From: Escherichia coli O157 typing phage 4
Length of the DNA: 64,000 bases
Reading direction: 5' to 3' (one strand)
Sequence record: KP869102
Below the pieces are notes generated by a model. It was not told the origin of the DNA. It searched no databases and worked only from the letters and a program-made list of their open reading frames with translations. Shown in pieces: positions 34,626-60,917 of the stretch (its first letter is position 1; every line of letters starts with the position of its first letter). The translations under genes and the position numbers were made by a program.

Positions 34626-36745
34626 AAGTTGTAAAACGGGACGGTAGAGAAGAGGTCTATAACGGAATTAAGGTGATCAAGGCGGCAGAGTCCGCCTTAC
34701 TTGAGTCTGGACATACTGAAGAAGAAGCTTACCGGATCGCCTGCGCGGTTAATGAAGTTGTTGCTAACAATCTACCAACCGACCAGTGCACGATCTCTGT
34801 AAAAAATATCCATATCCTTGTTGAAGACGCTCTTATGGATATGGGTTTAAAATGTGCAGCCAGAGAATACATCCAGTATAGGCAGACAAGAGATAATAAC
34901 AGAGAGGCAGGTGGAAAACTGCTTGCAGATATTAGTGGCTTCTTGGATCGCACTTGTGATGAATTTACAAAAGAAAACGCAAATAAGCCTACCAATCATG
35001 TACACACTCATCGTGACCTGCTTGCAGGCATCCTTAGCAAACACCTTGCATCAACACAGATCCTGCCAGACCGTGTCTCAGAAGAGCACAATAAAGGCTT
35101 CATCCATGTGCATGATCTTGACTACTTGATCAGTCCGTTAACAAACTGTTGTTTGGTAAATTATCCAGATATGTTGGAAAACGGATTCAACATTGGCAAC
35201 GCCCATGTCAGTAAGCCGAAGTCAATAGGGGTTGCAACAACAATCCTTAGCCAAATCTCTAGTGCAGTAGCTAGTGCTCAATATGGAGGTCAGACTATGA
35301 GCCATATTGATCATTATCTGGCACAGTATGCTGAGGCGACCTATGAGAAGAATCTTAAATTTTGCCAGGAACACTGGTTGCCAGATGCTGAGACTGTTGC
35401 AATGCAAATGACAGATAAAGACGTATTTGACAGCATGCAGACTTTGCTCTATCAAATCAATACGTTAACCTCTGTCAACGGGCAAACTCCATTCATCACA
35501 TTAAGTTTAGGACTGGATACCTCGGTCTTTGGTAGAATGATTACCAAAAACTACTTGAAAGTCCACAAAATGGGTCTTGGTGAAGAACGTATCACACCTG
35601 TGTTCCCTAAAGTGCTGTTCTTCCTAGAAGAGGGTGTCAACATGAGCCCTGGAGATCCCAACTATGATTTGAAACGATTAGCTCTGGAATGCTCTGCAGA
35701 GCGGATTTATCCTGACTTTGTTTCTGTTCCACTAAATCGTAAAGTGACAGGCTCGACAGATGGCAAAGTAACGAGCATGGGTTGCCGGAGTTTTCTTAGC
35801 AAATACAATGACTTGGAAACAGGCGAGGAGAAATACCTTGGTAGATTTAACTTAGGCGTTGTTAGCCTTAACCTGCCAATGATTGCGGCAAAAGCTAAAA
35901 CGGAAGGTGTTGATTTCTTTGCAGTTCTTGACGAATACCTGGATCTTGCATACGAGGCTCACCTTGTAAGGGTTAACCGTCTAAAAGGAACAAAGGCAGG
36001 GCAGAACCCTATCATGTGGTGTGAAGGCGCTCTTGCTCGCCTGGATCCTGAAGAGAGTATTGATAAACTCTTCTATGACGGGTACGCTTCCATCAGTATT
36101 GGGTATATTGGTGTGTATGAAACCTGTCAGATTTTGGGCAGGGAGGGTGACAAGGCTTTAGCTCTTGGAATACTCCAGCACATGAGAGATGCTTGTGAGC
36201 GATACAAGAAGGAAAGTAGACTAGCGTTTAGCTTGTACGGCACCCCTTCTGAGAGTCTATGCTATAAAGCTGCAACCTGTCTGGATCGTGAATATCCTGA
36301 AGTGTTGAAGCATGAGCATGAATACCTCACCAACAGTTTCCATCAGCCAGTATGGATAAATAGCTCTCCTTTTGATAAGTGGGAATACGAGGAAGGTTTT
36401 GCTATGATCTCCTCTGGTGGCAACATCGGATACGTAGAGACACCAAATCTGAAAAACAACTTAGATGCTTTAGAGGCTCTTGTTGACTTCGGGTATAAAC
36501 ACATTATGTATTTTGGTATCAACCAGCCTGTGGATAAATGTCTTAAGTGTGGTTTCTCTGGTGAGTTCAGTGCAACAGCTAAGGGATTCGTATGCCCGGA
36601 GTGTGGAAACCATGAAGAGGGAACGATCAGTGTGATCAGACGTGTATCCGGGTACCTGTCTAGTCCAAACTCCCGTCCTTACAATAAAGGTAAGCAAGCG
36701 GAAGTTATAGAACGGGTTAAGCACTACGGAAGTTGTGGTTGCTGA
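34622..36745 (+). CDS. nrdD: anaerobic ribonucleoside-triphosphate reductase
   Basis: 707 aa, C-terminal glycyl-radical-like RRVSGYLSS and Cys cluster; followed by activase gene. Confidence 0.8.
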   Translation: MKVVKRDGREEVYNGIKVIKAAESALLESGHTEEEAYRIACAVNEVVANNLPTDQCTISVKNIHILVEDALMDMGLKCAAREYIQYRQTRDNNREAGGKLLADISGFLDRTCDEFTKENANKPTNHVHTHRDLLAGILSKHLASTQILPDRVSEEHNKGFIHVHDLDYLISPLTNCCLVNYPDMLENGFNIGNAHVSKPKSIGVATTILSQISSAVASAQYGGQTMSHIDHYLAQYAEATYEKNLKFCQEHWLPDAETVAMQMTDKDVFDSMQTLLYQINTLTSVNGQTPFITLSLGLDTSVFGRMITKNYLKVHKMGLGEERITPVFPKVLFFLEEGVNMSPGDPNYDLKRLALECSAERIYPDFVSVPLNRKVTGSTDGKVTSMGCRSFLSKYNDLETGEEKYLGRFNLGVVSLNLPMIAAKAKTEGVDFFAVLDEYLDLAYEAHLVRVNRLKGTKAGQNPIMWCEGALARLDPEESIDKLFYDGYASISIGYIGVYETCQILGREGDKALALGILQHMRDACERYKKESRLAFSLYGTPSESLCYKAATCLDREYPEVLKHEHEYLTNSFHQPVWINSSPFDKWEYEEGFAMISSGGNIGYVETPNLKNNLDALEALVDFGYKHIMYFGINQPVDKCLKCGFSGEFSATAKGFVCPECGNHEEGTISVIRRVSGYLSSPNSRPYNKGKQAEVIERVKHYGSCGC

Positions 36746-36748
36746 TAC

Positions 36749-36780
36749 TTGACAAAAGCCACAAGGATGTGGCATATTAT
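36749..36780 (+). promoter_or_regulatory. sigma70-like promoter with embedded palindrome GCCACAAGGATGTGGC
   Basis: TTGACA then inverted repeat then ATATTAT; near-identical element at 43.7 kb. Confidence 0.5.
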
Positions 36781-36808
36781 TGACACACAGTGAGCTAGGA
36801 GGTACAGT

Positions 36809-36925
36809 ATGTCTACAGGTATTTATAAAATTTGCAAGTGTGGTTGTCGTTGCAATCTTCGTTGGTGCAAGGCACTGGACGATTTTATTTGGCATTGCCC
36901 TAAATGTGATGCGGAGTATCTATGA
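36809..36925 (+). CDS. small zinc-ribbon protein (38 aa)
   Basis: AGGAGG RBS 7 nt upstream; CKCGCRC...CPKC; ATGA overlap with nrdG start; too short for the ORF track. Confidence 0.4.
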   Translation: MSTGIYKICKCGCRCNLRWCKALDDFIWHCPKCDAEYL

Positions 36926-37395
36926 ATATTGCCGGATACACAGAAATATCTTACACCGAAGGGCCAGGTATTAGAACTGCCTTATGGGTATCTGGGTGCC
37001 CACACGCTTGCCCTGGTTGCTTTAATCAGGCATTTTGGTCAAAAGATAAGGGGAGAGAGTTTACTGAAGAAGACTTGCAAAAAATCTTGTCAGATTTAGA
37101 TAACCCGTCTGTGTGCGGTATCTCTCTGCTGGGTGGAGAACCCTTAGCATACTATAATGAGCCAGATATTATTAGCCTGATGGAGAAAATTAAGGAAAAA
37201 TTTGGTGACAAGAAAACTATTCTTGTATATACTGGGTTCACATTTGACCATATCTCTAGTGATGTTCTTAAACTGGCTGATATCATCATTGACGGTAAGT
37301 ATGTAAAAGATTTACCAACCAAGAAACCGTTCCGAGGCAGTGATAACCAAAGAATGTTTAAAAAAGTATCAGGCGGTTGGGTCCAGGTAGACTAG
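36922..37395 (+). CDS. nrdG: anaerobic ribonucleotide reductase activating protein (radical SAM)
   Basis: CPHACPGC radical-SAM cysteine motif; downstream of nrdD. Confidence 0.8.
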   Translation: MNIAGYTEISYTEGPGIRTALWVSGCPHACPGCFNQAFWSKDKGREFTEEDLQKILSDLDNPSVCGISLLGGEPLAYYNEPDIISLMEKIKEKFGDKKTILVYTGFTFDHISSDVLKLADIIIDGKYVKDLPTKKPFRGSDNQRMFKKVSGGWVQVD

Positions 37396-37398
37396 CTG

Positions 37399-37429
37399 TT
37401 GACAAAGCTTTGTTTAGATAGGTATAATT
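37399..37429 (+). promoter_or_regulatory. sigma70-like promoter
   Basis: TTGACA - 19 nt - TATAAT. Confidence 0.5.
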
Positions 37430-37459
37430 ATCGTAAAATGAAAGCAGAGGAGGTGCCAA

Positions 37460-37573
37460 ATGGCTAAAAAAGCCTTGAAGAAGGCGTACAAAAAAGAAAT
37501 TGCGCTTGAGCTCAAGAAAAAACACAAGCGTGAAAAGAAACATCATGAGGATGAAGAGGGGGTGCAACAGTGA
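37460..37573 (+). CDS. small basic protein (37 aa)
   Basis: GAGGAGG RBS; Lys-rich peptide; GTGA overlap with next gene. Confidence 0.3.
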   Translation: MAKKALKKAYKKEIALELKKKHKREKKHHEDEEGVQQ

Positions 37574-37920
37574 CACAAGAACGTATCGATTTGGCTAATA
37601 AGTTTGTAGATCTCATTTTGCCACGGTTAGTTACTCAACATGCAGACGCTATTTCTACTAATCTTGATGGCTTACGCCTAATGCTGAATCGCACAGATGA
37701 CCCTCGTATTCGGGCTGATTTAGAAGCCTCTGCCAACAAACTGGAAAAGTTCTTGCAAGTAGACACGCAAGAAGCCTTACACAAGATTATGGTGGAAGGT
37801 TTCTCTAAAGAATTTACCATTAAAGAGCTTAAGGAGCTGATCCACCAAGAAGAGATGAATATCCGAGTTCAGGCTGTTGCAAGCAGCATGGAAGCGGCTA
37901 TTGAAAAACTGTTGCAGTAA
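37570..37920 (+). CDS. hypothetical protein
   Basis: 116-aa ORF, apparent GTG start. Confidence 0.45.
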   Translation: MTQERIDLANKFVDLILPRLVTQHADAISTNLDGLRLMLNRTDDPRIRADLEASANKLEKFLQVDTQEALHKIMVEGFSKEFTIKELKELIHQEEMNIRVQAVASSMEAAIEKLLQ

Positions 37921-37958
37921 AAGTACTTGGCACATCTCAATCTGAAAGGAGTCCCAAC

Positions 37959-38747
37959 ATGGGTCGAGCTAAAGAAACAAAACGCATGCGTGATGAAGCT
38001 AGAGAGGCTCGCAAATCTGATCGCCTGCGTAAGGCTGCTGAGAAATTTGCTGACGAAAGAGAGCACACCGCTCCAGCTCTCCGACCAATGAATAAGAAGC
38101 AGCAAAAGTATCTTGATTATCTAGGGTCACGTAAGATTATCATTGTAAACGGTGTGTTTGGATCTGGTAAGACATTCATGGCATCTGCCTATGCAGGTGA
38201 TCTTCTGCGTAAGAACGAGATTGATAAGATCATTGTTGCACGTCCTTACGTTCAGACAGGAAAGACTTCAGGATTTAAACCTGGAAATGCAATGCAGAAA
38301 CTGTGGCCCTATCTTCGAAGCATGATGGACACGATTTGTCGTCGTGTTGGCAAAGGTGCTTTTGCCGCAATGCTGGGAGACGGTCAGAACAGCCGTATCG
38401 AGATTTGTGAGGTTGAAAGCATTCGTGGTCGTAGTTTCGATGAGCGATGCTTTGTCCTGATTGACGAGGCACAGCAAACTAACCCTGAAGAAATGTTGTC
38501 AATTATCACAAGGATCTCTGATCAGGCCACCCTTGTAATTATGGGCGATAATAGCCAACGTGACATCCCTGGTAAATCTGGCCTTGCATGGGTGACGGAT
38601 TTCTTTACTCGTCATCCAGATCCTGAGGTTGGAATGATCAGCTTTGATAGTCCAGACGATGTTGTTCGTTCCGGGTTGGGTCGTCAGATTGCACTCAATC
38701 TTATTGAGGATCGTGCAAATCATATTTGGACCCCTGTTTCCGAGTAA
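37959..38747 (+). CDS. phoH: PhoH-like ATPase
   Basis: Walker A GVFGSGKTF and Walker B VLIDEAQ in 262-aa protein. Confidence 0.8.
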   Translation: MGRAKETKRMRDEAREARKSDRLRKAAEKFADEREHTAPALRPMNKKQQKYLDYLGSRKIIIVNGVFGSGKTFMASAYAGDLLRKNEIDKIIVARPYVQTGKTSGFKPGNAMQKLWPYLRSMMDTICRRVGKGAFAAMLGDGQNSRIEICEVESIRGRSFDERCFVLIDEAQQTNPEEMLSIITRISDQATLVIMGDNSQRDIPGKSGLAWVTDFFTRHPDPEVGMISFDSPDDVVRSGLGRQIALNLIEDRANHIWTPVSE

Positions 38748-38791
38748 TACAGAAGGGTGGTTATTCCACCCTTAGATATCTAAAACAGTTG

Positions 38792-38820
38792 TTGACAAAC
38801 AGGTAAGATTTAGATATTAT
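38792..38820 (+). promoter_or_regulatory. sigma70-like promoter
   Basis: TTGACA - 17 nt - TATTAT upstream of gene at 38851. Confidence 0.55.
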
Positions 38821-38850
38821 TACCGGACAAGACAAGGAGAAGGAGATAGT

Positions 38851-39162
38851 ATGGCTACAATACAAGAGAGACTGAATAAAATATACTGCCTGTTTGTCTA
38901 TAACGGCGAGACAATTTTGGCAAATAAAGGATCCAAGAATGTGTGGATCAAGGACAGGGGTGGTAATATAATCAACTTAGCGTTGCTACGTGAGCGCCGA
39001 CACAGATTCTTTATCGAGTCTCGGATTATTGAAAGCAGCACCTGCTACAGAACAGGCGATAAAGTAATTGTTGACAATGATACGTGGTATGTGGTAGACT
39101 GGCAATCATTGAGCTGTGATGCTTCTGACAATCGTAAGTATTCCCTAGTGATTGCTAAATAA
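38851..39162 (+). CDS. hypothetical protein
   Basis: 103-aa ORF with GGAGAAGGAG RBS. Confidence 0.45.
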   Translation: MATIQERLNKIYCLFVYNGETILANKGSKNVWIKDRGGNIINLALLRERRHRFFIESRIIESSTCYRTGDKVIVDNDTWYVVDWQSLSCDASDNRKYSLVIAK

Positions 39163-39222
39163 AGGTAAATGTGAATCAGGTTTAAATAAATAGCTTTCAA
39201 CTTCCAATATTAAGGATTTCTC

Positions 39223-40272
39223 ATGAATTTAACACCTCGCAGCACCATGGTACACGGCATGAAAGAAAAACAGAACGGTTTCGAACCTATGAGTAATAAA
39301 ATGTTTGGTATGCCGGGTGGTATTATGGAAACATACAGCTACCCAACACCTGTTGTTGACCACGTTCTTTATATCGACGATTTGGAAGACTTACAAGATC
39401 ATATGTCTCGTCTGCAGACGATCCGTATGGCTCAGCCGGAAGAAAGCATTCGGGTGATCATCAATAGCCCTGGGGGTTGCGTGCACATTGCAATGGCTTA
39501 TCTGCAGGCATTCCGCGAGTCTCAGGCAAGCGTTGTTGCACATGCTGAAGGGATGTGCTGCTCTGCTGGAACAATCTTATGGCTTGGTTGTAAAGAACGT
39601 ACTGTGGCTCCGGACACAGAGTTTATGTTCCACTACTATCAAGGTGGCACTTATGGTAACGGTGTGAACATGAATACTCAGGTCAGCTACTGGAAAAAAC
39701 GTTTTGAACGCCTGATCGAAAAATACTACGGTGGGGTGCTGACAGAAGATGAGATCGCATCCATCACAGCTGGTGGCGAAGTGTGGTTGGACGGAGAAGA
39801 GCTGGCAGCACGCACTGGAGCTATTATTCTGGATGAAGGCAACATACAACGCATCCAGAACGGACAAAAACCGAAAAAGCTTCTGGCAAAAGGTGATGAA
39901 GAAGGCGTGTTAGGTGAAGCAGGTCTTCCGGAGATTCACCAGTGCACATCTTTAGATGAGTTAGTTCATGCTGTTGAATCTGCAAAAGCGGGTGGTTCGA
40001 AAGGTGATGTTCACACTGTGTTCCTGAATCTGCAGATGGAAAGTGGCGAGACCGTCAGAATTGCCCTGGGTGAGATTACTTCAGAAGATCTGCAGAGATT
40101 CTCTGTCGTTGAACTTCAGGATATTCTGTCTCAATTGAAGACTACTCTGAACGGCGGTGAAGAGGTTAAGGTGAAAGATAAGACGCGCAAGCGTCTGGTG
40201 GACAATATTATTAAAACAGCAAAAGAGCTCAATGAAAAAATCCTGGGTGCAGGAATTGTCGAAGAAGCTTAA
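39223..40272 (+). CDS. ClpP-like serine protease with C-terminal extension
   Basis: INSPGG and CCSAGT motifs (ClpP/S14-like) in N-terminal ~200 aa; ~150-aa acidic C-terminal extension. Confidence 0.6.
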   Translation: MNLTPRSTMVHGMKEKQNGFEPMSNKMFGMPGGIMETYSYPTPVVDHVLYIDDLEDLQDHMSRLQTIRMAQPEESIRVIINSPGGCVHIAMAYLQAFRESQASVVAHAEGMCCSAGTILWLGCKERTVAPDTEFMFHYYQGGTYGNGVNMNTQVSYWKKRFERLIEKYYGGVLTEDEIASITAGGEVWLDGEELAARTGAIILDEGNIQRIQNGQKPKKLLAKGDEEGVLGEAGLPEIHQCTSLDELVHAVESAKAGGSKGDVHTVFLNLQMESGETVRIALGEITSEDLQRFSVVELQDILSQLKTTLNGGEEVKVKDKTRKRLVDNIIKTAKELNEKILGAGIVEEA

Positions 40273-40284
40273 ACATTAATTCTA

Positions 40285-40307
40285 AAGCCCTCTTCGGAGG
40301 GCTTTTA
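40285..40307 (+). terminator. rho-independent terminator
   Basis: AAGCCCTC-TTCG-GAGGGCTT hairpin followed by TTT. Confidence 0.7.
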
Positions 40308-40323
40308 TGATCTGGAGATTTGC

Positions 40324-40857
40324 ATGACTTGTGCTAGAAAACCTGATGAACAACGTAACGCCTACGATGAGTATGTGACACCGGAGTGGTGTGCAGAAGG
40401 GCTGTATGACCTTATTCCGTTCCCAGAAGACTGGACCTACTTAGAGCCTTGCAGGAATAGTGCCTCAGGTGTGTTCTACTCCCGTATGCCGTTAGGATCT
40501 GCATGGGGAGAAATCCAAGAAGGTGTTGACTATCTGAATACAGAATACAACCATGTTGACTGTATTATCACCAACCCGCCGTACAGCCTGGCTCGTGAGT
40601 TTGTGGACAAGGCGTTGAAAGATGCCGACGTAGTTATTATGCTTTTGCGTCTTAATTTTCTGGAAAGCAAGGCCAGATTTGAATGGTGGCTTGATAATGC
40701 ACCTACCACTGTGATCACAATATCTAAGCGCCCGTCATTCCAATCCAATGGTAGAACGGATGGGCAGGCATATGCATATTTTGTATGGGACAAGAAAAAC
40801 CGTCTAGACTTGCCGCCATTTATGTGGTTGGCACCACCAGAGGCAGATTTGAAATGA
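40324..40857 (+). CDS. DNA methyltransferase (NPPY-type, N6-adenine or N4-cytosine)
   Basis: IITNPPY motif; 177 aa. Confidence 0.6.
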   Translation: MTCARKPDEQRNAYDEYVTPEWCAEGLYDLIPFPEDWTYLEPCRNSASGVFYSRMPLGSAWGEIQEGVDYLNTEYNHVDCIITNPPYSLAREFVDKALKDADVVIMLLRLNFLESKARFEWWLDNAPTTVITISKRPSFQSNGRTDGQAYAYFVWDKKNRLDLPPFMWLAPPEADLK

Positions 40858-41138
40858 AAATGAGTGCTAAGGACAAGTTGCACCAGTTAGCGCTAAAACG
40901 TCCTGTAACGCTCCCTGACGAGCTTAACTCCATTTATGATGCGATTGTAGGGGAGATACAAAATAAAGCGTTAGCAGGCTTTCTGGGATGCGGATTTTCG
41001 ATAAATCTACCCTCACATCTCTCAGATTACTTCCCGCATATTGTTGGGGATTTGAGGGCAGGAGGTCTGCAGGTAGATGTTGTTGGCATCTCTCCAGAGA
41101 AAAATAACACGGTTGCCTACTTGACAGTAACCTGGTAG
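40854..41138 (+). CDS. hypothetical protein
   Basis: ATGA overlap with methyltransferase stop. Confidence 0.4.
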   Translation: MKMSAKDKLHQLALKRPVTLPDELNSIYDAIVGEIQNKALAGFLGCGFSINLPSHLSDYFPHIVGDLRAGGLQVDVVGISPEKNNTVAYLTVTW

Positions 41139-41140
41139 TT

Positions 41141-41413
41141 ATGTATTGTTGTTCTCAACAAGGGGGGTCATTTATGTACAAGTCATTTTCAATTTACTCA
41201 AGACAGGCGAAACACTACACAGAGATCCTGATTACTCAGAAAAAATCTGTAGAAGGTGAGTGGGAATATCACCATAAAATGTTGCGTCCAGATTGGGTTT
41301 TTGATAGACTTATTGCTATGATCCCTCTTGGAGAAGTATACCCTCTGACAGGTCATAGGGATGCTTGGGATTTAATTGATTACATAGATTCATTTAAGGA
41401 GCCCAGTGTATGA
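41141..41413 (+). CDS. hypothetical protein
   Basis: 90-aa ORF. Confidence 0.4.
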   Translation: MYCCSQQGGSFMYKSFSIYSRQAKHYTEILITQKKSVEGEWEYHHKMLRPDWVFDRLIAMIPLGEVYPLTGHRDAWDLIDYIDSFKEPSV

Positions 41414-41808
41414 AGATTGAGATCACTAAAGAAGGTAAGAAAGTGTCTGGAGACTATGCAACAGTAATTCGAGATTTAATGTTTGAAACCACCAAGTTCG
41501 GCACATCTAAAGTTGGTCAAACGGTGAGTGTGCAAGGTAATATCACCTCAGGAGAGAAGATAATCATCGTGATCAAAGGACAAGATCCTGTGGAAGGAAC
41601 AGTGGGCCGAGGAGGCTACCTGTGCATTTCTGAAGAACCGCGCATGCTGGTTGCTGATGACTCCACAGGTAAAAAGCGGGTATGTAACACTGACGAGGTG
41701 ATGATTATCTATCCAGTCAACCCAGATGATCCTGCAACATGGATTGTGGGGAATGAAATCTTCTCTTTAGAAGAGTTATCATTCCCAGCTCCGCGCTCTG
41801 TTCAGTAA
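41410..41808 (+). CDS. hypothetical protein (MKIEIT N-terminus)
   Basis: 132-aa ORF; N-terminus resembles other small proteins in this region. Confidence 0.45.
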   Translation: MKIEITKEGKKVSGDYATVIRDLMFETTKFGTSKVGQTVSVQGNITSGEKIIIVIKGQDPVEGTVGRGGYLCISEEPRMLVADDSTGKKRVCNTDEVMIIYPVNPDDPATWIVGNEIFSLEELSFPAPRSVQ

Positions 41809-41847
41809 TAATTTATCTTACCAGGGACGGTAGAAGTAGGAGGTAGC

Positions 41848-42081
41848 ATGAAAGTTAAATTTCTTACAGATTTAGGGTACCCTTCCTTGGTTGACTGCGT
41901 TGGTAAAATTGTGGAAGCAAAACGACTATCTGCAAACGATAATGTTGTCATGGTTAAGGGAAAAGATTTACTATCTGCAGGTGCAGAGTCTGGCAGGATC
42001 TCTCCTGACTATACGTATTACCTGTCTTTAAGTAATCTACCAGAACGAGGCGGCAAAGGCCTTGAAGTTGTGGAGGAGTGA
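41848..42081 (+). CDS. small acidic protein, KGxDLxxAGA paralog family
   Basis: MKVKFL start, VKGKDLLSAGA motif, acidic C-terminus VVEE. Confidence 0.45.
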   Translation: MKVKFLTDLGYPSLVDCVGKIVEAKRLSANDNVVMVKGKDLLSAGAESGRISPDYTYYLSLSNLPERGGKGLEVVEE

Positions 42082-42605
42082 CAGGTATGCTACTGGTTGA
42101 TTGGAAAGATTTTTATGGCGATAAAGACCCGAAAGCATTTATATATAAGCCTTGGAGATACTCAGAGAGTCAAATTGCTGCAATAAACCTTACAGCAAAG
42201 CGCCGAAAAATTATTGAAAGTAAATATAGATACGCCCAGCTAGTGGCTGGTGTTTCTCCACAGGTAGAGGGTTTTGTACTTAAACTGTACGAAAAGTTTA
42301 TGAATTACGATTTGTCATTCGTGAAGGTGGGCGAGGATTTATCCCCTGGTAACAACGTAACTCGTTGGAAAGTTTCGTGTGACAAAAAACTCCCGATCAG
42401 TATTGAGGTGTGTCGATACTGGGGGTATCATGATTGTGGATTGTATGACTACCATGATGTGGAAATAAAGCCACGCAATCATCTAAGCGACACAGAAAAA
42501 GATTACTTGAAGCATGTGATTCTTTCCATGTTTGGAGGGTATATCACAGAGAAAAATAGCGAAGACAGAGTATCCTTTCTTAACAGTTTGAACCAGGAGA
42601 TGTAA
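42078..42605 (+). CDS. hypothetical protein
   Basis: 175-aa ORF. Confidence 0.45.
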   Translation: MTGMLLVDWKDFYGDKDPKAFIYKPWRYSESQIAAINLTAKRRKIIESKYRYAQLVAGVSPQVEGFVLKLYEKFMNYDLSFVKVGEDLSPGNNVTRWKVSCDKKLPISIEVCRYWGYHDCGLYDYHDVEIKPRNHLSDTEKDYLKHVILSMFGGYITEKNSEDRVSFLNSLNQEM

Positions 42606-42606
42606 T

Positions 42607-42843
42607 ATGGCCATAGATACTGTGTTGGTTTGGTATTGCGCATTGACCTTTCTGACAATGGTTGTTTTAGCAACTCTTTGCATCATATCTTGTAGAAAAA
42701 TTAAGTTTGACGACTTTATAACTATAATCACTGCCGCACCTTTTTGGCCTGTCGTTCTCTTCATTGTTGTTATGTGCTTGGTAGATCACTGTAAAACCGT
42801 CAGAAAAATGAAGGAGGCAGATAAGAATGGTAACAGTGACTGA
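42607..42843 (+). CDS. small membrane protein (two predicted TM helices)
   Basis: Two hydrophobic stretches in 78 aa. Confidence 0.45.
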   Translation: MAIDTVLVWYCALTFLTMVVLATLCIISCRKIKFDDFITIITAAPFWPVVLFIVVMCLVDHCKTVRKMKEADKNGNSD

Positions 42844-42957
42844 AACTGTTTATACTGTTCTTAGGGAGATTGCATTCTATACAGACCTTAGTTCAGTATC
42901 TTCATGGGAAAAGAGTGTGTATTTAAAATGGTGCGTGAAATTAGAGGGGACCTTCTA

Positions 42958-43077
42958 ATGTTTCAAGCCATGTTTATTGAAATGCTCTCCGGAGTATTAC
43001 TGCTGGTAGCCATTTTGGGTGGTGCGGCACTAATGTATAATTATCTTGAAAAAGGAGACAGCAATGGTAAAAAATAA
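42958..43077 (+). CDS. small membrane peptide (39 aa)
   Basis: Hydrophobic core SGVLLLVAILGGAALM; AGAGGGGA RBS; overlaps the next call, so one of the two may be wrong. Confidence 0.3.
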   Translation: MFQAMFIEMLSGVLLLVAILGGAALMYNYLEKGDSNGKK

Positions 43078-43249
43078 ATCTTTAGAGCAGGCTGAAAACC
43101 TTCTCCACGAGCTGGTAAAGGAGTGGAAAGTTGAATACTCAGATTTTAATGCACGAGAGGGTGAAGATTATTGGCCTACGGAGCGCTCAGAGGGTGAATG
43201 GTATCAAGATTTTATAGAGTGGTTATATCAGACGTGCGATGAGGGGTGA
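43064..43249 (+). CDS. hypothetical protein
   Basis: ATG at 43064 with AAGGAG RBS (track ORF 43046..43249). Confidence 0.4.
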   Translation: MVKNKSLEQAENLLHELVKEWKVEYSDFNAREGEDYWPTERSEGEWYQDFIEWLYQTCDEG

Positions 43250-43707
43250 CGATGTTTGTTAAATATGTAAAAACGTGCCTCAACAGCCTTGGCAGAGAGC
43301 ATTGGTACACCTTGCTTGAAAAAGGAGAGATTTTAACAAAATCTGGAAAGATAACTTTGATACCTCTTGACAGTAAAGACCCGTCACTACTTGTTATAGA
43401 TGATTACGTTACAGGTGTGACGTTCGAGGTCTCTGTGGAGAGGTTAATACGCAGAGCTGGCGGCCCTTGTGATCAAAGAGAGTATGTTTTCGATTCCGTT
43501 ACAGAGAGGGATCATCCGTCTTTAATGTTCAGGATGGTAATCAGAGATATGAGGTCATCTATAGATAGGATCGTAAAGGACATTAAGGAACCTTTTAGAG
43601 TAAAAGTTAAGAAGTTTTTTGATTCTAAGATTAACATACTTGCCGTTGTGCTAGGCGTAATTCAACTTCTGTTAATTTTGCACTATTTTGAACTGTTGTC
43701 TAAGTAG
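43246..43707 (+). CDS. hypothetical protein with C-terminal TM helix
   Basis: 153 aa, C-terminal ILAVVLGVIQLLLILHYF. Confidence 0.45.
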   Translation: MTMFVKYVKTCLNSLGREHWYTLLEKGEILTKSGKITLIPLDSKDPSLLVIDDYVTGVTFEVSVERLIRRAGGPCDQREYVFDSVTERDHPSLMFRMVIRDMRSSIDRIVKDIKEPFRVKVKKFFDSKINILAVVLGVIQLLLILHYFELLSK

Positions 43708-43767
43708 TGTGCAACAAGGCACAAAGGATGTGCCATAATTAAACAAATTAAGAAAGAGGTAGAGAGA

Positions 43768-44115
43768 ATGTCAAAGATTAAATCGATATTAATGTGGGTA
43801 GCTGTTGTGGCTTTTATAGGGTACTGGGTTTGGGAAACTGAATTAAAAGATATCGGATATACCAGTCTTGAGAGCAAGGCGTGCATTGGCATAACCGATG
43901 CGTTCAGGCAAAACGCTATGGATCACGAATGTGTTGATGCAGATATAGATGAGAAACTGTCTAAGGACAAAGATTTTTACCATGGGCATGCTTTGCTTGA
44001 TAGTGGTGACACTGTAGAGTTCTGGTCGTGGTTCCGTGAAGATGGAACAATAAAAACAGCAGTAAAGATCTCTAACAAAGAGTTAATGCTGTTGCAGCAG
44101 AAGGAGGCTCAATGA
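43768..44115 (+). CDS. hypothetical protein with N-terminal TM helix
   Basis: 115 aa, AGAGG RBS. Confidence 0.45.
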   Translation: MSKIKSILMWVAVVAFIGYWVWETELKDIGYTSLESKACIGITDAFRQNAMDHECVDADIDEKLSKDKDFYHGHALLDSGDTVEFWSWFREDGTIKTAVKISNKELMLLQQKEAQ

Positions 44116-44399
44116 TCTGGATATCCTATACTGATGGCACCATGCTGTATACTGCAGGTACCCGATATGAGGTTCAGGAGGACGATAAAAAATTTATCGT
44201 AAAAACATTTGACAAGGACGACAACCTTTTGCTAGAATTGACTTACAAGGTTGGAGAGGTATCCGATATCCAATTGGATTGTGGTCATAAAGATAATCCA
44301 CTCAAAAAACCTGGAATAGGCAAGGCTTCAGAAGAACGTTTGTCTCGTATTGCAGAAAGCGTTTCTCCCCAAAAATCTAAGAAGAGGAGTAGAAAATGA
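44112..44399 (+). CDS. hypothetical protein
   Basis: 95 aa, ATGA overlap. Confidence 0.45.
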   Translation: MIWISYTDGTMLYTAGTRYEVQEDDKKFIVKTFDKDDNLLLELTYKVGEVSDIQLDCGHKDNPLKKPGIGKASEERLSRIAESVSPQKSKKRSRK

Positions 44400-44596
44400 G
44401 TGACAAAATTCTTAAATTTAATACCTACTATGAGAATGATTTGAACGATCTGTATTATATAGTGCGTAGCGAAAACCCGAATGTAGTACTGTTTTGCCGA
44501 GAACCTTTCAAAGGAGAGGAGATTGAATCTACCATGAATGTGGATCAGATTTCACACCTGCTGCTCCTTGGATCATTAAAAGAGGCTGTATTCTAA
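44396..44596 (+). CDS. hypothetical protein
   Basis: 66 aa, ATGA overlap. Confidence 0.4.
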   Translation: MSDKILKFNTYYENDLNDLYYIVRSENPNVVLFCREPFKGEEIESTMNVDQISHLLLLGSLKEAVF

Positions 44597-44615
44597 ACCA
44601 GGGTGGAGGGTTTTT

Positions 44616-44801
44616 ATGAAGCACTATTGTCTGTCTGGTAGAATGGGTGCAGATTGTGATTGGGTTTTCTTAAAACTTGTCAGTATTCGAGAGTTCATTC
44701 CAGAGGAAGAGCAAGAAAGTGAGCTGATGTCATGGATCAACCATTACGGTAACACTTTTCGGCATGTTAAGGTGGAAGAGTTGCCAAGCGAGGCTGATTG
44801 A
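44616..44801 (+). CDS. hypothetical protein
   Basis: 61 aa. Confidence 0.4.
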   Translation: MKHYCLSGRMGADCDWVFLKLVSIREFIPEEEQESELMSWINHYGNTFRHVKVEELPSEAD

Positions 44802-44803
44802 CT

Positions 44804-44893
44804 ATGATTGCATCAATATTAACGTTTATGGGTGGCGTGGCATTCGGATTCATTGTTTGCCTGTTTATAGTGATTATGTCTATGCGAGGCTGA
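44804..44893 (+). CDS. small membrane peptide (29 aa)
   Basis: Fully hydrophobic peptide filling the gap between neighbouring genes. Confidence 0.3.
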   Translation: MIASILTFMGGVAFGFIVCLFIVIMSMRG

Positions 44894-44896
44894 ATT

Positions 44897-45190
44897 ATGA
44901 AACTTTTTGAGTGGTTTAAAAAGTTTAAATATAAAGCTGTAGCCATCGTGCCGTGGTCCATTCAGTGGGTGGACGATGAGGGATTACCAATTCCAGGTGA
45001 TAAAGACACGGGATACTGGATCATGCTTGAGAACGGGTTCGGTAAACGGAAATATTCCTGCACGGATACCTCAGGAGCATCTTTTAGGAGAATTCCTGGG
45101 TATAAATGTATGATTGTGTGGAAGATGTCTGGTGTACCTCCGGCCAATGCACAATATCTTACTACCAATCCAACCACAGAAGAGGACTAA
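44897..45190 (+). CDS. hypothetical protein
   Basis: 97 aa. Confidence 0.4.
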   Translation: MKLFEWFKKFKYKAVAIVPWSIQWVDDEGLPIPGDKDTGYWIMLENGFGKRKYSCTDTSGASFRRIPGYKCMIVWKMSGVPPANAQYLTTNPTTEED

Positions 45191-52793: not shown

Positions 52794-52893
52794 NNNNNNN
52801 NNNNNNNNNNNNNNNNNNNNNNNNNNNNNNNNNNNNNNNNNNNNNNNNNNNNNNNNNNNNNNNNNNNNNNNNNNNNNNNNNNNNNNNNNNNNN
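52794..52893. other. assembly gap (run of N)
   Basis: 100 consecutive N. Confidence 0.99.
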
Positions 52894-52944
52894 TTAGTGG
52901 CGGGAAGTTTTCCCGCCTGTGTTTTTAATTATACTTATTGAGAT

Positions 52945-53205
52945 TTACTTGTCAACACTATTTTTTAAATTATTGTGGCGCAAAATGTTTAAAATCTCTT
53001 CAACGTCATCAACACGGCGGCAATTTTTAAACGCTACCAATTGCCCCATGATTTTAATCACTGGGCGGCCTTGCCAGTGCCCCTGGAGAAAGCGCGCCTT
53101 GACTTTATCAGTGGAACTATCACGCCACCAAACGGCCTTGTTATTGCAGTAGTAAAAATTATTCAGGACAATATCAACTTTATCAAAATTTTTTAATTTA
53201 CGCAT
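52945..53205 (-). CDS. hypothetical protein
   Basis: 86-aa minus-strand ORF. Confidence 0.4.
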   Translation of the reverse strand: MRKLKNFDKVDIVLNNFYYCNNKAVWWRDSSTDKVKARFLQGHWQGRPVIKIMGQLVAFKNCRRVDDVEEILNILRHNNLKNSVDK

Positions 53206-53413
53206 AGTGTTTACTCCTTCCTTCTTGCTTTGATGTGGTTAGTATATCCGGACTATTCCAAGGTGTCAAGCTTTAAATAAAATCACTGTCAATGATATTT
53301 TTAACACCATAAAACGGCCCTGGGTGATGTTTTCAGGCTAAGAAAGGGGATTGCATAGGTAGGGGCTTTTGTGGCGTTTGTGGGGCCAACCAGGGGCGCT
53401 ATTCGTAGGATAG

Positions 53414-53442
53414 AAATAAAAAGCCCCGCACAATGGCGGGGC
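53414..53442 (-). terminator. rho-independent terminator
   Basis: On minus strand GCCCCGC-CATTGT-GCGGGGC followed by TTTTTATTT. Confidence 0.55.
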
Positions 53443-53531
53443 GTTGGTTGTTATTTGTCTTTATGGCGGTATCGTTCCGCTTGTCGTTCACGTTCCAAAA
53501 GTAGGCCCGGCAATTTACGATCATAATGATT

Positions 53532-53633
53532 CCNNNNNNNNNNNNNNNNNNNNNNNNNNNNNNNNNNNNNNNNNNNNNNNNNNNNNNNNNNNNNNNNNNN
53601 NNNNNNNNNNNNNNNNNNNNNNNNNNNNNNNNN
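53532..53633. other. assembly gap (run of N)
   Basis: About 100 consecutive N. Confidence 0.99.
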
Positions 53634-53949
53634 TGGCCTGAATCGCCCGGATACGGCGTTTTATAACCTCCTGATCCGTGCAATCGTATCCCCAAAAGTC
53701 TACAATTTTCGCGCCGCCAGCTTTTAAGCGGTATAATGTTTCTTGCATTTTGTAAGCTGGGATCGGTCGCGGTGTTACCTGGTCGCCTTTTTCATCCTTG
53801 TACTTGATTATGTAGTCCTCGTTGTCGTTGAATACCCAAAAAGGGTACTCTGTAAGGGCGTTGCTTTCTTTTTCGTTTTTAGATTGGATCTTGTTTACAA
53901 TTAAAGCCGTAGCAATAGCGCCAATAATAAAACTAGCCCCGCTGATCAT
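53634..53949 (-). CDS. hypothetical protein with N-terminal TM helix, partial (runs into gap)
   Basis: Minus ORF from ATG ~53949; 3-prime end lost in N run. Confidence 0.35.
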
Positions 53950-54024
53950 GTTACTTTCTCCTTTCATTGTGTTGATAAACTATCTTTATAGATGGCCCTG
54001 TTACCAGGACCACCGAAAAAATAA

Positions 54025-54270
54025 CTATTTCACAATGCCTACAAAACAGATCCCGCCTTCACCTATATAGGCAATATCGGTAATTTTATAATTTGTCAAG
54101 ATCCGCGTGTTCAGATCATTAATAAAATCGGTCATCGCGTTGGTGTAGTTGTCTTCCGTGTCTAAGGCATAATCCCAGGTGTAAACCTTTTTACGTCCGA
54201 AGCCTTTTACCATGATACGGGCGCTTTTGGTGTTGGTAGGGGCATAATATTTGGTGATTAGTGCTGCCAT
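54025..54270 (-). CDS. hypothetical protein
   Basis: 81 aa, AGGAG RBS. Confidence 0.4.
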   Translation of the reverse strand: MAALITKYYAPTNTKSARIMVKGFGRKKVYTWDYALDTEDNYTNAMTDFINDLNTRILTNYKITDIAYIGEGGICFVGIVK

Positions 54271-54359
54271 GGTTTTAACTCCTCTGAATTAGTTCAGTGT
54301 TAACAGTATAAAGTTTACTTTATTGATGGCCCTGAAGTCAAGGCCATCTAAAAATAAAC

Positions 54360-54701
54360 TTACTCGTTTTCTTCCAGCTCCGCAAGCTCTTCTTTTGCTT
54401 CTTCTAACTCTGTCTGTAGTTCCTGGTATTCTTCATCGTCCTCAATATCCAGGCTGTCGATGTAGTCGCTAAATCCGCAGCGGTAAGCGATAGGATCTAG
54501 CTCCTTGAGGATACGCGACGGAAGAAAAGAAATGTTTCCGATCATAATTTCGCCGTAGATCTCGTCTAACCATTCATCATAGTTTTCGTCGTACTTGTCC
54601 TCGTCGATTTCAAAGTTATCGATCTTGTTCTCAAGGTCTGCGATCTGTTTTTTCAGCGCGGCGATCTGCATAGCTTTTTCTGCGGCGGTCATAGTAGTCA
54701 T
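54360..54701 (-). CDS. hypothetical acidic coiled-coil protein
   Basis: 113 aa, AAGGAG RBS. Confidence 0.45.
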   Translation of the reverse strand: MTTMTAAEKAMQIAALKKQIADLENKIDNFEIDEDKYDENYDEWLDEIYGEIMIGNISFLPSRILKELDPIAYRCGFSDYIDSLDIEDDEEYQELQTELEEAKEELAELEENE

Positions 54702-54980
54702 GGTGTTTTCTCCTTTTGTGTGCTCTGGGAAGTTTTCCCGTTTACGTGTTTAAGTATAGCGATCTAAGTTAGTTTGTCAATTAAAAATTTAAGAAAAATT
54801 TTGCAAAACTGTTAGCGCTACTCATTAACATTTGCGCCAGGATGTAACCAATGATGCAAACGATAATAGTTACCTTTGTGTGCTGGCGTGTAGTACTCAT
54901 CTTTAAGCCCCCCTTTCCGCTCAACTGTGGTTAGTTTACTTTATTGATGGCCCTGGAGTCAAGGCCATCTAAAAATAAAC

Positions 54981-55376
54981 TCAGTACGTTTTCAGTACTT
55001 TCCCGTCCAACCTGTCTAACTGAATCTCAATAGCTGCAGAAAACCTATTGTAAACCACATCGCCCAAGGAGTCCAGCCAATCTATAACGTTATACACCTG
55101 CTCTTTATTCTTGCAAGTCCGGATCCGTTTCATTACGTAAGACGGATCAATATTAGTACTCCCGTTGTTGTGGTCATGCGCCTGGCCTGCTGCACTGGTT
55201 ATAGATTTTACAACCACCTGAAAGGGCTTTAAGGTGCCTTTTGCGTTCATCTCACGCGCTTTTGCGGCGCGGTTGTTATATGTTACACAACGGCGGCAAA
55301 TGTTGAATAAATGCATGTCAATAATTTTTTCATCGTTTGCCAGTTCGTTCATGATGCGGCGTACGTTCTTATTCAT
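54981..55376 (-). CDS. hypothetical protein
   Basis: 131 aa, AGAGGA RBS. Confidence 0.45.
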   Translation of the reverse strand: MNKNVRRIMNELANDEKIIDMHLFNICRRCVTYNNRAAKAREMNAKGTLKPFQVVVKSITSAAGQAHDHNNGSTNIDPSYVMKRIRTCKNKEQVYNVIDWLDSLGDVVYNRFSAAIEIQLDRLDGKVLKTY

Positions 55377-55460
55377 AGCTTTTCCTCTGTGTTGGCGGGA
55401 TGTTTCCCGCCTTTTGTGTCTAGTTTACTTGAATTTTGCAGCGTGTCAATAATTTTTTTT

Positions 55461-55859
55461 TTATTCGTGGGCACATGTTACAATGTGCTTTTTATAGCCC
55501 AGGTGGGCAGCAAGTGCCGCCAAAAACTCATCTTCATAGATCCAGCCGTTGGCAGTGATCCCCATAGCATTTAATGCGCTCTCAAGTGCTGCGTTAGCTT
55601 TATCATAACCGTGACCGCTCGCCTTGCCGCCAGTATAACCGTACTTATTGTTCTTGTTGTCGTGTATCCAAAAAACGCAGTAGTTAGTGTTACCGCTGGC
55701 GGCGGCATAGTACCGGATCTCCGCTACTTCGTGCAAATTATTATCATCGTCCAGGCCAACCAGATTATAAGCCTTGTAAAATCCACGATCACGGCGGCAG
55801 TTCTTGACATCAGAAAAAGAGAAGTCGGCATTGTCAAAATTAAAGGTTGTGGTTTTCAT
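55461..55859 (-). CDS. hypothetical protein
   Basis: 132-aa ORF. Confidence 0.45.
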   Translation of the reverse strand: MKTTTFNFDNADFSFSDVKNCRRDRGFYKAYNLVGLDDDNNLHEVAEIRYYAAASGNTNYCVFWIHDNKNNKYGYTGGKASGHGYDKANAALESALNAMGITANGWIYEDEFLAALAAHLGYKKHIVTCAHE

Positions 55860-55923
55860 GATTTTATCCTCTTAGTGTCTTTTGTGATTTCAGTATATTT
55901 TGTGTCGGGGCGTATGTCAATAC

Positions 55924-56121
55924 TTATTTTTTATTAAACCAGTGATTGATCTGACCTTTTGTCAGGGCGCAACGATTAAGCTGTTGCAGGGTATAGCTAT
56001 GACCGCGACGAAATTTATAAAGGCCTTGCCCGTTGTTGATGGTTACATCCACCAGGCAAACCACTTGATCGGTGACCACCTGGCGAGTGTTGCGACGTAC
56101 TTTGATTCCGTATGCGTTCAT
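55924..56121 (-). CDS. hypothetical basic protein
   Basis: 65-aa ORF. Confidence 0.35.
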   Translation of the reverse strand: MNAYGIKVRRNTRQVVTDQVVCLVDVTINNGQGLYKFRRGHSYTLQQLNRCALTKGQINHWFNKK

Positions 56122-56209
56122 GATTTTTTATCCTCTCTGTTAATTAGTGTGGTGTTGTTCACCTTGCGAGGATAAGAATAACAAGAACTGTCCGAGCTGT
56201 CAACCATTA

Positions 56210-56362
56210 GTTAAAATTATTTTTGCCCCTGCCAGGTTAACCATCATTTTTTCGTACTCTTCTTTATGTTCCAACGCTCCCGCCATAGCCTTTTCAACCA
56301 GGGCGATAGCCTCAGCGTCATTAATAGCTACATTTTCCAGGGGGATCATATTACCTTTCATT
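56210..56362 (-). CDS. small hypothetical protein (~50 aa)
   Basis: Minus ORF MKGNMIPLENVAINDAEAIALVEK... with AAGGGGAGG RBS; below ORF-track length cutoff. Confidence 0.3.
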
Positions 56363-56544
56363 TTTGTACCTCCCCTTCAATTGTTACCTATCCTATAGCA
56401 TAGGCCCACCAGGTTTACAAGCCTTCATTCTCTCCTGCCTGGTCAGTTAGGTCCTGCCAGGCTGGCCCCGCCAGGTTGCAGCGGTTAGCGCATCAGGTTA
56501 GAAAAATTTTTTGAAAAGTGTTGACAGCGGCCCCGCCAGGTGGC
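56231..56544. repeat. iteron-like array of CYGCCAGGT motifs (about 7 copies)
   Basis: cctgccaggtt, cccaccaggtt, cctgcctggtc, cctgccaggct, ccccgccaggtt, catcaggtt, ccccgccaggtg read directly. Confidence 0.55.
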
Positions 56545-56894
56545 ACAATATACCTATCGAAAGGACGGCAGGCACCGGTGACGGGGGAGGCAACCACCGG
56601 GGATGGACGCTGCATAAAATGAGAACGGTTATCATTATCATTTAAAAATTTATGCAAAAAATCCTTGCTTTCTTTGTCCTGTGTGATACTATAATAACAA
56701 GCCGGGGCAACAGGGGCCGGGAGACAATCACCGGGCCTGCCCGTTATTCTGCAAACGAGAATGATTATCATTCAAAATTCTAAATGAGAACTCCTCGCAT
56801 TTAATAAATTTAATTAGCATGCTAATTACCCTCCGTAACAATTTCCTATAAAACAGTATCCCATAAAATATTTCCATATAGAAATTTTAAAAAT

Positions 56895-57069
56895 CCATTT
56901 CTGAAAACGAAAAATCGATTTCGTCCCCAAAAATTTCAGGTCGAGATCCGGAACGATTTCCAGAAAATCCGATTTAGAAAACGAAAAACAGATCGAGTAC
57001 TGAGAAATTTATCGAGAAAAATTTTCAGAAAATTCAATCTTTGAAACGAAAAACAGATCGAGTACCTGG
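56895..57069. repeat. AT-rich direct repeats (unit ending GAAAACGAAAAACAGATCGAGTAC), two full copies and one partial
   Basis: Near-identical ~44-bp copies at ~56957-57000 and ~57023-57066, partial copy ~56895-56925. Confidence 0.6.
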
Positions 57070-57377
57070 AAAGCTGCACTGCAACTTCAAGATAGTGGTT
57101 AGATTATTACCATAAAAGGTCAAGGGTAAGTGGAGGAAGTTCTAGTAGAAGGATGTGAGCATGTGTGGGAAATCTATAATGGTGGCCTGGAATATGGTGC
57201 AAACGATAGGATGAGTTATTCAGCTTGTCGCGCCTACTCTGAAAAATCCATTTTAGTTTTCGATCCATTTTCTGATTTTCTAAGAATTTTAAAATATCCA
57301 GCCCGGTGAAATATCAAAAGGAGGAAATCCATTTTAGAAATCCCCCTTATACTTGATATGCCAGGAATTTTCAAGTA

Positions 57378-57707
57378 TCAGTTGTCTTTGTTTTTAGGTT
57401 TGTACATGCGCAGAGGTATGGTCTTTGTAACATTCCATTTCCTCAACCCTTCCCAGCTCCAGTTGTGGGCGTGGTATCCGGTTATGCATGCACTACTGGA
57501 GTGATCGTAAGCATAAGAGAACGCTAAGCGCACCAGGTGGGGCCAGTCCTTCCATGGTTGTGGACCGTAAGCTTTTCTCCAACACCGACACAAACTAAAT
57601 GTCTCAAGGATAGGAAGGATAACAAACCCATACACTGTCACCAAAATAGTCAGTGCAATGATTGTCAGGAACACATACCCTGCAGTTGAAATGATGATCT
57701 CTGTCAT
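57378..57707 (-). CDS. membrane protein
   Basis: N-terminal TM helices; 109 aa. Confidence 0.4.
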   Translation of the reverse strand: MTEIIISTAGYVFLTIIALTILVTVYGFVILPILETFSLCRCWRKAYGPQPWKDWPHLVRLAFSYAYDHSSSACITGYHAHNWSWEGLRKWNVTKTIPLRMYKPKNKDN

Positions 57708-57907
57708 TTGTCGTCCCCTTTCTTACGGATATAGATGTGAGAACCTGCCTGTATATAAATTTCTCGACCATCTTCTGCGAAGATGTGGAATACACGGTCA
57801 CCTTCGTACTCAATACGAGATATCTTCATAATGGTCTTTCCACCTGGGATACGGATCTCGTCCCCCACAGCGATGTTCCATGCAGATTTAAGCTTAAACA
57901 TCTGCAC
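57704..57907 (-). CDS. hypothetical protein
   Basis: 67 aa, overlapping stop/start. Confidence 0.4.
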   Translation of the reverse strand: MQMFKLKSAWNIAVGDEIRIPGGKTIMKISRIEYEGDRVFHIFAEDGREIYIQAGSHIYIRKKGDDK

Positions 57908-58139: not shown

Positions 58140-58159
58140 ACTTTATCTCCTGCACTTTC

Positions 58160-58492: not shown

Positions 58493-58502
58493 GGCACGAT
58501 AC

Positions 58503-60903: not shown

Positions 60904-60917
60904 ATGTTAACTAATTG

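Follow-up and report, generated by a model that had tools for sequence, protein, structure and literature searches.

CsrA is a master post-transcriptional regulator of enteric bacteria. In the hairpins bound by CsrA, RsmA and RsmE, both those in the leaders of glgC, hcnA and lipA and those in the sponge repeats of CsrB and RsmX/Y/Z, a GGA is found in the loop of a short stem. The CsrA consensus from systematic evolution of ligands by exponential enrichment (SELEX) is RUACARGGAUGU, in which ACA and GGA are invariant and the GGA lies in the hairpin loop, the structural consensus for RsmE is (A/U)CANGGANG(U/A), and ACAAGGAUGU has been reported as an RsmE site in lipA of P. protegens. Here we describe phage hairpins that may be an instance of this known kind of site, set in the spacers between cistrons, starting from one between the open reading frames (ORFs) ORF125 and ORF126 in 64,000 nucleotides (nt) of Escherichia coli O157 typing phage 4 (KP869102). 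We call this whole stretch the window and give positions in it unless another record is named. Positions 1-52793 of the window are identical in sequence to positions 50145-102937 of Escherichia phage JES2013 (NC_022323.1), an rV5-like Vequintavirus, and we refer to the genome by that name.

Phages have other RNA and promoter elements that invite comparison. The lambda-type boxB of the nut sites has a short GC-closed stem and a purine-rich loop of 4-5 nt and is recognised as RNA in phage transcripts, but its loop is GAAAA rather than the AAGGA seen here, and we saw no boxA and know of no N-like protein in this phage. In the PeSL (promoter-early stem-loop) elements of T4-type phages, a sigma-70 promoter with a stem-loop mostly between the -35 and -10 boxes or over the -10 box is followed by a Shine-Dalgarno (SD) sequence and an ATG (Arbiol et al. 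2010; Comeau et al. 2014).

The hairpin between ORF125 and ORF126, which we call copy 2, lies among early and middle genes that form a long rightward block, all of it on the + strand. Its immediate surroundings are as follows.

43705-43707, + strand: TAG stop codon of ORF125, a virion structural protein; the hairpin begins 10 nt downstream.
43718-43734, + strand: copy-2 hairpin GGCACA-AAGGA-TGTGCC (GGCACAAAGGATGTGCC), with perfect arms of 6 base pairs (bp) and the 5-nt loop AAGGA, ending 33 nt ahead of the ORF126 ATG.
43731-43739, + strand: extended -10-like sequence TGcCATAAT, overlapping the 3' arm of the hairpin.
43756-43770, + strand: SD sequence GAGG and ATG (at 43768) of ORF126, 115 amino acids with an N-terminal hydrophobic segment.

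The RNA core of copy 2 is ACAAAGGAUGU, with the loop GGA at 43726-43728, and its RNA fold is predicted at -9.2 kcal/mol (z = -4.2). This palindrome and its partner at 36758-36773, copy 1, are related, conserved and almost certainly functional. The element works as RNA, or at any rate strand-specifically, and selection acts on its loop sequence. That the palindrome is an intercistronic RNA hairpin that CsrA would bind is a reading to which we give about even weight, judging from sequence comparison, and we rank it first because of the strand specificity, the selection on the loop, the coincidence with the Csr/Rsm motif and a distribution that follows the lineages where CsrA exists.

We aligned both spacers in 12 Vequintavirus genomes (88-99% identical). 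An earlier note on this DNA had proposed a conserved palindrome within 43705-43740, followed by ATAATT and upstream of the gene at 43768; all of this holds, the ATAATT being the CATAAT stretch of 43734-43739 shifted by one base, with the first C common to the palindrome. Copy 2 is invariant in 11 of the 12 genomes, and 1 of its 17 columns varies versus 15 of the 24 columns in the 12 nt on either side (Fisher p = 2.7e-4). In phage Mangalyan only the closing A-U pair is changed, which turns the loop into AAAGGAG. The stretch from the SD sequence to the ATG of ORF126 is wholly conserved in 12/12 genomes, and ORF126 itself has no homologue outside the genus in the phage collection. We found no mosaic or recombination breakpoint at copy 2, where identity is 78-100% on either side.

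The -10-like hexamer behaves differently. Across the same 12 genomes it reads CATAAT in 2, CATAGT in 4, CATAAC in 4 (lacking the T at -7) and CATGAT in 2, and no -35 box is conserved. The hexamer at copy 2, which is not conserved across the genus, is probably incidental; at best it would be a weak promoter of particular lineages, possibly in JES2013. In the lineage of V18, Murica and APCEc02, the end of ORF125 just upstream of copy 2 is covered by another 7-bp palindrome, ACTACTA-TTTAAG-TAGTAGT, and a TTGAGA stands 3 nt ahead of the copy-2 hairpin.

Copy 1 and two further hairpins of the genome, with the sites that surround them, are listed here.

36749-36778, + strand: sigma-70-type promoter-like site TTGACA-N18-CATATT with TG, 10/12 matches, with copy 1 in its spacer.
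36758-36773, + strand: copy-1 hairpin GCCACA-AGGA-TGTGGC (GCCACAAGGATGTGGC), 12 nt past the nrdD stop codon (36743-36745).
36797-36811, + strand: SD sequence AGGAGG and ATG of ORF108, a Cys-rich protein of 38 amino acids with nrdG next; its GGA is a second one, 31 nt past the GGA of the copy-1 loop.
21025-21040, + strand: third hairpin ACCAC-ACGGAC-GTGGT, 11 nt past the stop codon of the endolysin gene ORF83 and 36 nt before the ORF84 ATG.
21017-21045, + strand: promoter TTGACA-N17-TATTGT, which encloses the third hairpin and is the published rV5 promoter P090.
124909-124926 of NC_022323.1, outside the window, - strand: fourth hairpin CAGCAC-AGGGAG-GTGCTG, in the gap between the DNA polymerase gene (ORF210) and ORF209, 10 nt past the stop codon.

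Copy 1 lies between nrdD and ORF108/nrdG, with its loop GGA at 36765-36767. The earlier note had paired it with copy 2, and the pairing stands in the sense that the two are related and differ by a compensatory change, position 2 of the arm being C in one and G in the other with the matching exchange on the opposite arm; they are not identical, and the loop is 4 nt (AGGA) in copy 1, 5 nt (AAGGA) in copy 2 and 6 nt at the 21025 site. The block CTTGACAAAAG-palindrome-CATATT is invariant in 9/9 genomes in which nrdD abuts ORF108. In EPFV3 the arm of copy 1 has changed from GCC to GTC, which leaves a G.U wobble on the + strand only. The variants that we saw, namely the C:G to G:C exchange between copies, the EPFV3 wobble and the loss of the closing pair in Mangalyan, all keep the RNA hairpin. 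When all 109 intergenic regions of the genome were dinucleotide-shuffled 2000 times, 32 of the trials produced related palindromes in two different regions, and a rough count from sequence similarity alone is marginal only. We regard the comparative conservation as stronger evidence than these chance tests on the pair.

To find other sites of the same kind we searched the whole JES2013 genome for [AT]CA-N1-2-GGA-N-G[AT]. Only 4 of the 41 matches are intergenic (copy 1, copy 2, 21025-21040 and 124909-124926 of NC_022323.1), and these 4, unlike all the others, have a stem of 5 bp or more. Each is in the sense orientation, flanked by genes that point the same way, starts 10-12 nt past the upstream stop codon and ends 21-36 nt before the next ATG; from the gene layout, they would be transcribed. 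The predicted hairpin folds stand at -9.2 and -9.3 kcal/mol, with z about -4. A palindrome at 23637-23652, GCCACA-GGTA-TGTGGC, has the arms of copy 1, and we rejected it as a further copy: it lies inside the coding sequence of ORF89, its loop has no GGA, and its arm identity is at chance among the palindromes of the window.

The core of copy 1, ACAAGGAUGU, is read on the + strand as CC-ACAAGGAUGU-GG. It is identical to the reported RsmE site and to the SELEX consensus core, and it matches (A/U)CANGGANG(U/A); the core of the 21025 hairpin, A-CACGGACG-U, also matches the latter exactly. Copy 2 has one extra loop A relative to the consensus. The essential GGA is present in all three, and its position in the loop of a short hairpin is supported by the predicted folds, by the compensatory exchange between copies and by the complementary outer pairs in phages and bacteria. 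The phage core ACA(N)GGAUGU agrees with both the SELEX and the structural consensus, and the phage hairpins, like the described CsrA/Rsm sites, are in sense orientation and precede an SD sequence. They differ in being intercistronic, 10-12 nt past a stop codon and not in a 5' leader; binding is so far predicted, two of the four are overlaid by sigma-70 promoters, and copy 2 has the additional loop base and is followed by an SD sequence that contains no GGA.

A site for another sequence-specific RNA-binding protein, phage-encoded or of the host, would also explain a loop that is conserved and strand-specific, and most nearby phage ORFs have no known function. Against this, the phage encodes no CsrA homologue that tblastn of E. 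coli CsrA could detect in the whole genome, the best E value being 2.8, a single phage protein common to unrelated phages is unlikely, and the motif coincides exactly with the CsrA/RsmE consensus; we consider this alternative very improbable.

The loop as well as the stem recurs in other phages. The exact copy-1 16-mer was found in 64 stretches of the IMG/VR database that fall into 39 families by their flanks, 29 of them noncoding by the simple ORF rule that we used for metagenomic loci. The matches are mostly shortly past a stop codon and ahead of an SD sequence and ATG, mostly without promoter boxes. A control with the same stem and a permuted loop, AAGG, gave 23 families, of which 22 are coding, so the loop matters beyond the hairpin alone. 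The search of IMG/VR for related loci returned a single Vequintavirus contig, and in distant phages there is no synteny at the nrdD-nrdG spacer.

We then allowed both outer pairs of the stem to vary (GSCACAAGGATGTGSC) in scans of phage and bacterial sequences; the counts from both scans that follow are among the matches listed. In IMG/VR, at least 70 families have complementary outer pairs versus at least 8 with non-complementary ones; two stems were recovered, the same as in copies 1 and 2 of JES2013. Judged by the flanking ORFs, 47 families carry the hairpin in sense orientation and 3 in antisense. The gap from stop codon to hairpin is 4-28 nt, with a mode at 7-13 nt, and the gap from hairpin to ATG is 16-52 nt in most families. 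Where the phages could be identified, their hosts are Enterobacterales or other Gammaproteobacteria. The nearest phages of other families are those of Pseudoalteromonas or Vibrio and of Nitrincola, Pseudomonas or Acinetobacter, the host of an IMG/VR family being an indirect deduction. With somewhat less than even confidence, and on the strength of these comparisons, we propose that lytic phages of Gammaproteobacteria may widely carry a near-optimal CsrA hairpin about 10 nt past stop codons of their polycistronic mRNAs, in the Vequintavirinae between the tail-tube and chaperone genes. It would be a portable module that links phage gene expression to the host Csr/Rsm system or titrates that system, and of which JES2013 would have four instances.

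The strand bias bears directly on the other explanation for a palindrome next to a promoter. The earlier note placed both copies within promoters, in the same arrangement relative to a -10-like hexamer. The arrangement is indeed equal, TGgCATATT at copy 1 and TGcCATAAT at copy 2, in the same register; the promoters are another matter, in that copy 1 lies in the conserved TTGACA-N18-CATATT but copy 2 has the drifting hexamer described above. The implied double-stranded DNA operator fits poorly. As a dyad in the spacer of two promoters, it would be bound by a dimeric DNA-binding regulator of phage or host, either a repressor or a MerR-like activator. The perfect dyad, the TGn and -10-like hexamer that both copies abut, the conserved promoter block of copy 1, and its consensus -35 box with an overlong 18-bp spacer, as in MerR-type promoters, would all suit such an operator. 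Against this, the spacing of the half-sites is 4, 5 or 6 nt with the GGA kept, so that the centre is conserved and not the arms alone, the -7 T is lost in 4/12 genomes at copy 2, and a lytic phage genome has only four sites. A symmetric protein-DNA operator is indifferent to strand, so the ratio of 47 to 3 argues against it, the more so as most of those sites have no promoter boxes. No regulator was found either: Pfam gave no match for 8 nearby or candidate proteins (ORF125, ORF126, ORF108, ORF149 and neighbours), which includes ORF149, annotated as 'transcriptional regulator', although these are few ORFs. Compared with their general forms, none of the NrdR, CRP, FNR, NtrC and MerR-type boxes fits, the MerR-like architecture having been considered for copy 1 only. 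A sigma-54 promoter (GG-N10-GC, TGGCAC-N5-TTGC) was also rejected; the GG and GC are 12 nt apart in GGCACAAAGGATGTGCC and copy 1 has no GG. The operator-in-promoter model explains least, and we hold it to be quite improbable.

The promoters at copy 1 and at the 21025 site are better candidates for real promoters that are superimposed on a hairpin, because a spacer of 17-18 bp is free sequence space in an intergenic region of 60 nt. Of the 33 sigma-70 promoters listed in the rV5 paper, none is the copy-1 or copy-2 site, and P090 (TTGACATAACCACACGGACGTGGTATTTT) makes a third promoter with a GGA hairpin in its spacer. Directly after copy 1 there is a second promoter-like sequence at 36780-36808, TTGACA-N17-TACAGT, which overlaps the ORF108 SD sequence; its TTGACA is not conserved and is TTGATA or TTGTTA in relatives. 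Hairpins in spacers are not general in this genome: at 69 sense-strand promoter-like sites the mean z is 0.01, and 5 have z < -2. The strongest spacer hairpin of the genome is on the - strand at 14624-14653, TTGACA-GCGGGGAGTAATCCCTGC-TATTTT (-13.9 kcal/mol, z = -4.8).

These promoter sites lead to the main rival, a structural hairpin with no specific protein partner, which would serve as a weak attenuator or terminator or stabilise the 3' end of the upstream cistron, and which would sometimes have merged with an early promoter as in PeSL. Copy 1 and the 21025 site have exactly the PeSL layout, including the strong -35 and -10 boxes that copy 2 lacks, and PeSL-like gene insertion at the hairpin edge is seen too. 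In Mangalyan and WM, a gene for an HNH/homing endonuclease of 386 amino acids is inserted immediately 3' of the copy-1 palindrome (Mangalyan locus L019, 2386-2450); nrdD keeps both TTGACA and the palindrome, whereas the leader that ORF108 gains is a different one without the palindrome. The hairpin loop AGGA is annotated as the ribosome-binding site of that endonuclease gene. The hairpin is near an upstream stop codon in all cases, and T-rich tails follow it in 19/70 phage families among the matches listed. In the mydoviruses, which belong to the Vequintavirinae (Raoultella phage Ro1, Klebsiella phages KB57 and KpS8, and Proteus phage Mydo), it is found in the gap that separates the tail-tube gene from the gene for the tail assembly chaperone, where JES2013 has a classical GC-rich terminator instead.

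Several observations are not explained by structure alone. The loop is invariant, and loop and closing pairs recur together in unrelated phages and in bacterial noncoding RNA, whereas the stem with loop AAGG is almost never intergenic. Copy 2 has no U-tract and a stability of only -9 kcal/mol, whereas the real terminators of the phage are GC-rich with U-runs; a consensus scan for intrinsic terminators lists copy 1 (tail ATATTATT) and not copy 2 (tail ATAATTAAAC), which does not have the form of an intrinsic terminator. PeSL elements are polyG/polyC-rich, effective terminators present in many repeats, whereas here there are 4 sites with a modest stem and a conserved loop, and neither the scarcity of significant spacer hairpins (the 5 of 69) nor the intact alignment at copy 2, with no mosaic breakpoint, resembles them. 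We consider a structural hairpin of this sort unlikely.

Two further phage families have the exact 16-mer with a homologous chaperone gene downstream. In the mydoviruses and two other groups, an outer helix under the 16-mer covaries (CGTGA/TCACG, CGTGT/ACACG and GTCATG/CATGAC; Ro1 locus L119, 2438-2518), and the 16-mer of the tail-tube/chaperone site together with this helix looks like a larger conserved RNA structure.

In bacterial genomes, GSCACAAGGATGTGSC was found in noncoding positions with complementary outer pairs in 34 cases versus 1 with non-complementary pairs. Taxonomy is listed for 28 of the complementary noncoding copies: 21 are from Gammaproteobacteria, 3 from Bacillaceae, 2 from Spirochaetes, 1 from Alphaproteobacteria and 1 from Betaproteobacteria. 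Gammaproteobacteria, Bacillaceae and Spirochaetes, which are lineages generally known to carry CsrA, hence account for 26/28 of these copies versus 16/53 of the rest (p = 3e-8), and Gammaproteobacteria alone for 21/28 versus 15/53 (p = 1.2e-4), again among the matches listed. One copy is inside a TwoAYGGAY RNA (RF01731, at the gathering score), which belongs to the same Rfam clan as rsmX; bacterial noncoding loci of the type of the Csr/Rsm clan thus contain the identical hairpin. In four Pseudomonas species the hairpin is just ahead of a terminator in a conserved noncoding stretch (for example locus L213, 5928-6030), which ends ..GTTCATGCGA..G-GCCACAAGGATGTGGC-CATTACAGGCC.. and then the terminator; this stretch may be an unannotated small RNA of the Rsm type. 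In Bacillus ndiopicus (locus L201, 948-1015) the 16-mer is inside a match to the Bacillaceae-1 RNA (RF01690).

The bacterial copies also help to weigh an SD mimic, in which the loop and 3' arm (AAGGAUGUG) would pair with the 3' end of 16S rRNA and hold ribosomes near the stop codon for standby or re-initiation. The sequence complementary to the 16S rRNA 3' end is AAGGAGGUG, which AAGGAUGUG matches at 8/9 positions and the Mangalyan variant perfectly, and the fixed gap of 10-12 nt past the stop codon and the 16-52 nt from hairpin to ATG in most of the families listed would suit it. But pairing of SD sequences is near-universal, yet the listed noncoding copies concentrate in Gammaproteobacteria and a few other lineages, the hairpin is also found in loci resembling small RNAs ahead of terminators with no downstream ORF, and the stem ties up half of the mimic. 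The probability of this explanation is small.

We rank CsrA binding first and now gather what weighs against it. The loop of 5 nt puts copy 2 off the strict consensus, and its exact variant is rare in IMG/VR, with 4 matches, 2 of them coding. Hairpins with GGA in the loop are not enriched genome-wide (168 versus 146 +/- 13), while the loose motif ACA-N0-2-GGA-N0-1-TGT has 8 matches versus about 6 expected, and an Rfam scan of 36000-45000 gave nothing relevant. The sole Rfam match of the Pseudomonas stretch is to rsmX at 20.4 bits versus a threshold of 56 (E = 0.12). The T-rich tails and the mydovirus hairpin at a terminator position mean that a role in termination or stability could be primary. 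Our literature search found no Vequintavirus transcription start sites and no transcript or binding data for this phage group.

The classic two-site form of repression also belongs here. A second CsrA site that overlaps the SD sequence 10-63 nt away is typical of repression targets, though it is not obligatory. Copy 1 has such a candidate in the AGGAGG 31 nt downstream, but the ORF126 SD sequence contains no GGA, and across phage families a GGA in the downstream SD sequence is found in 16/32 of the matches listed versus a background of 468/931, which is no enrichment. Two-site repression therefore has no specific support as a general scheme; it fits copy 1 and not copy 2.

If CsrA does bind, the rightward, polycistronic read-through transcript of the lytic phage would carry the stem-loop, assuming transcription through the hairpin, and the loop GGA closed by ACA and UGU would form the recognition module of the CsrA (RsmA/E) family. 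Dimers of host CsrA would then bind the hairpin on the read-through mRNA, and the bound protein might tune the translation or the stability of the flanking cistrons, or abundant phage mRNA might titrate CsrA. It is equally possible that CsrA would act at the 3' end of the cistron upstream, or that it would be titrated.

The colinearity of the window with NC_022323.1 ends past position 52793. The remainder, 52794-64000, contains five 100-nt runs of N (52794-52893, 53534-53633, 61185-61284, 63028-63127 and 63417-63516). Five stretches separate or follow these runs; the ends of the first three place them at about 111814-120997 of that record, and the last two are unplaced. Among the related sequences, 18 records labelled 'Campylobacter phage' (MG0656xx) are 90-98% identical here to the Vequintaviruses of E. 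coli, and their host labels look doubtful.

The interplay of CsrA with virulent phages is almost unexplored. Sites of this kind are easily mistaken for promoter operators or for terminators, so that recognising them would improve the annotation of phage genomes. Given that the hairpin recurs at a fixed position after stop codons in unrelated phages, a result at a single site would inform a whole class of phage intergenic elements. If the CsrA reading is true, the expression of the anaerobic nucleotide-reduction module (ORF108/nrdG) and of small early genes would depend on the metabolic state of the host, or, alternatively, the phage mRNA would be a sponge for CsrA.

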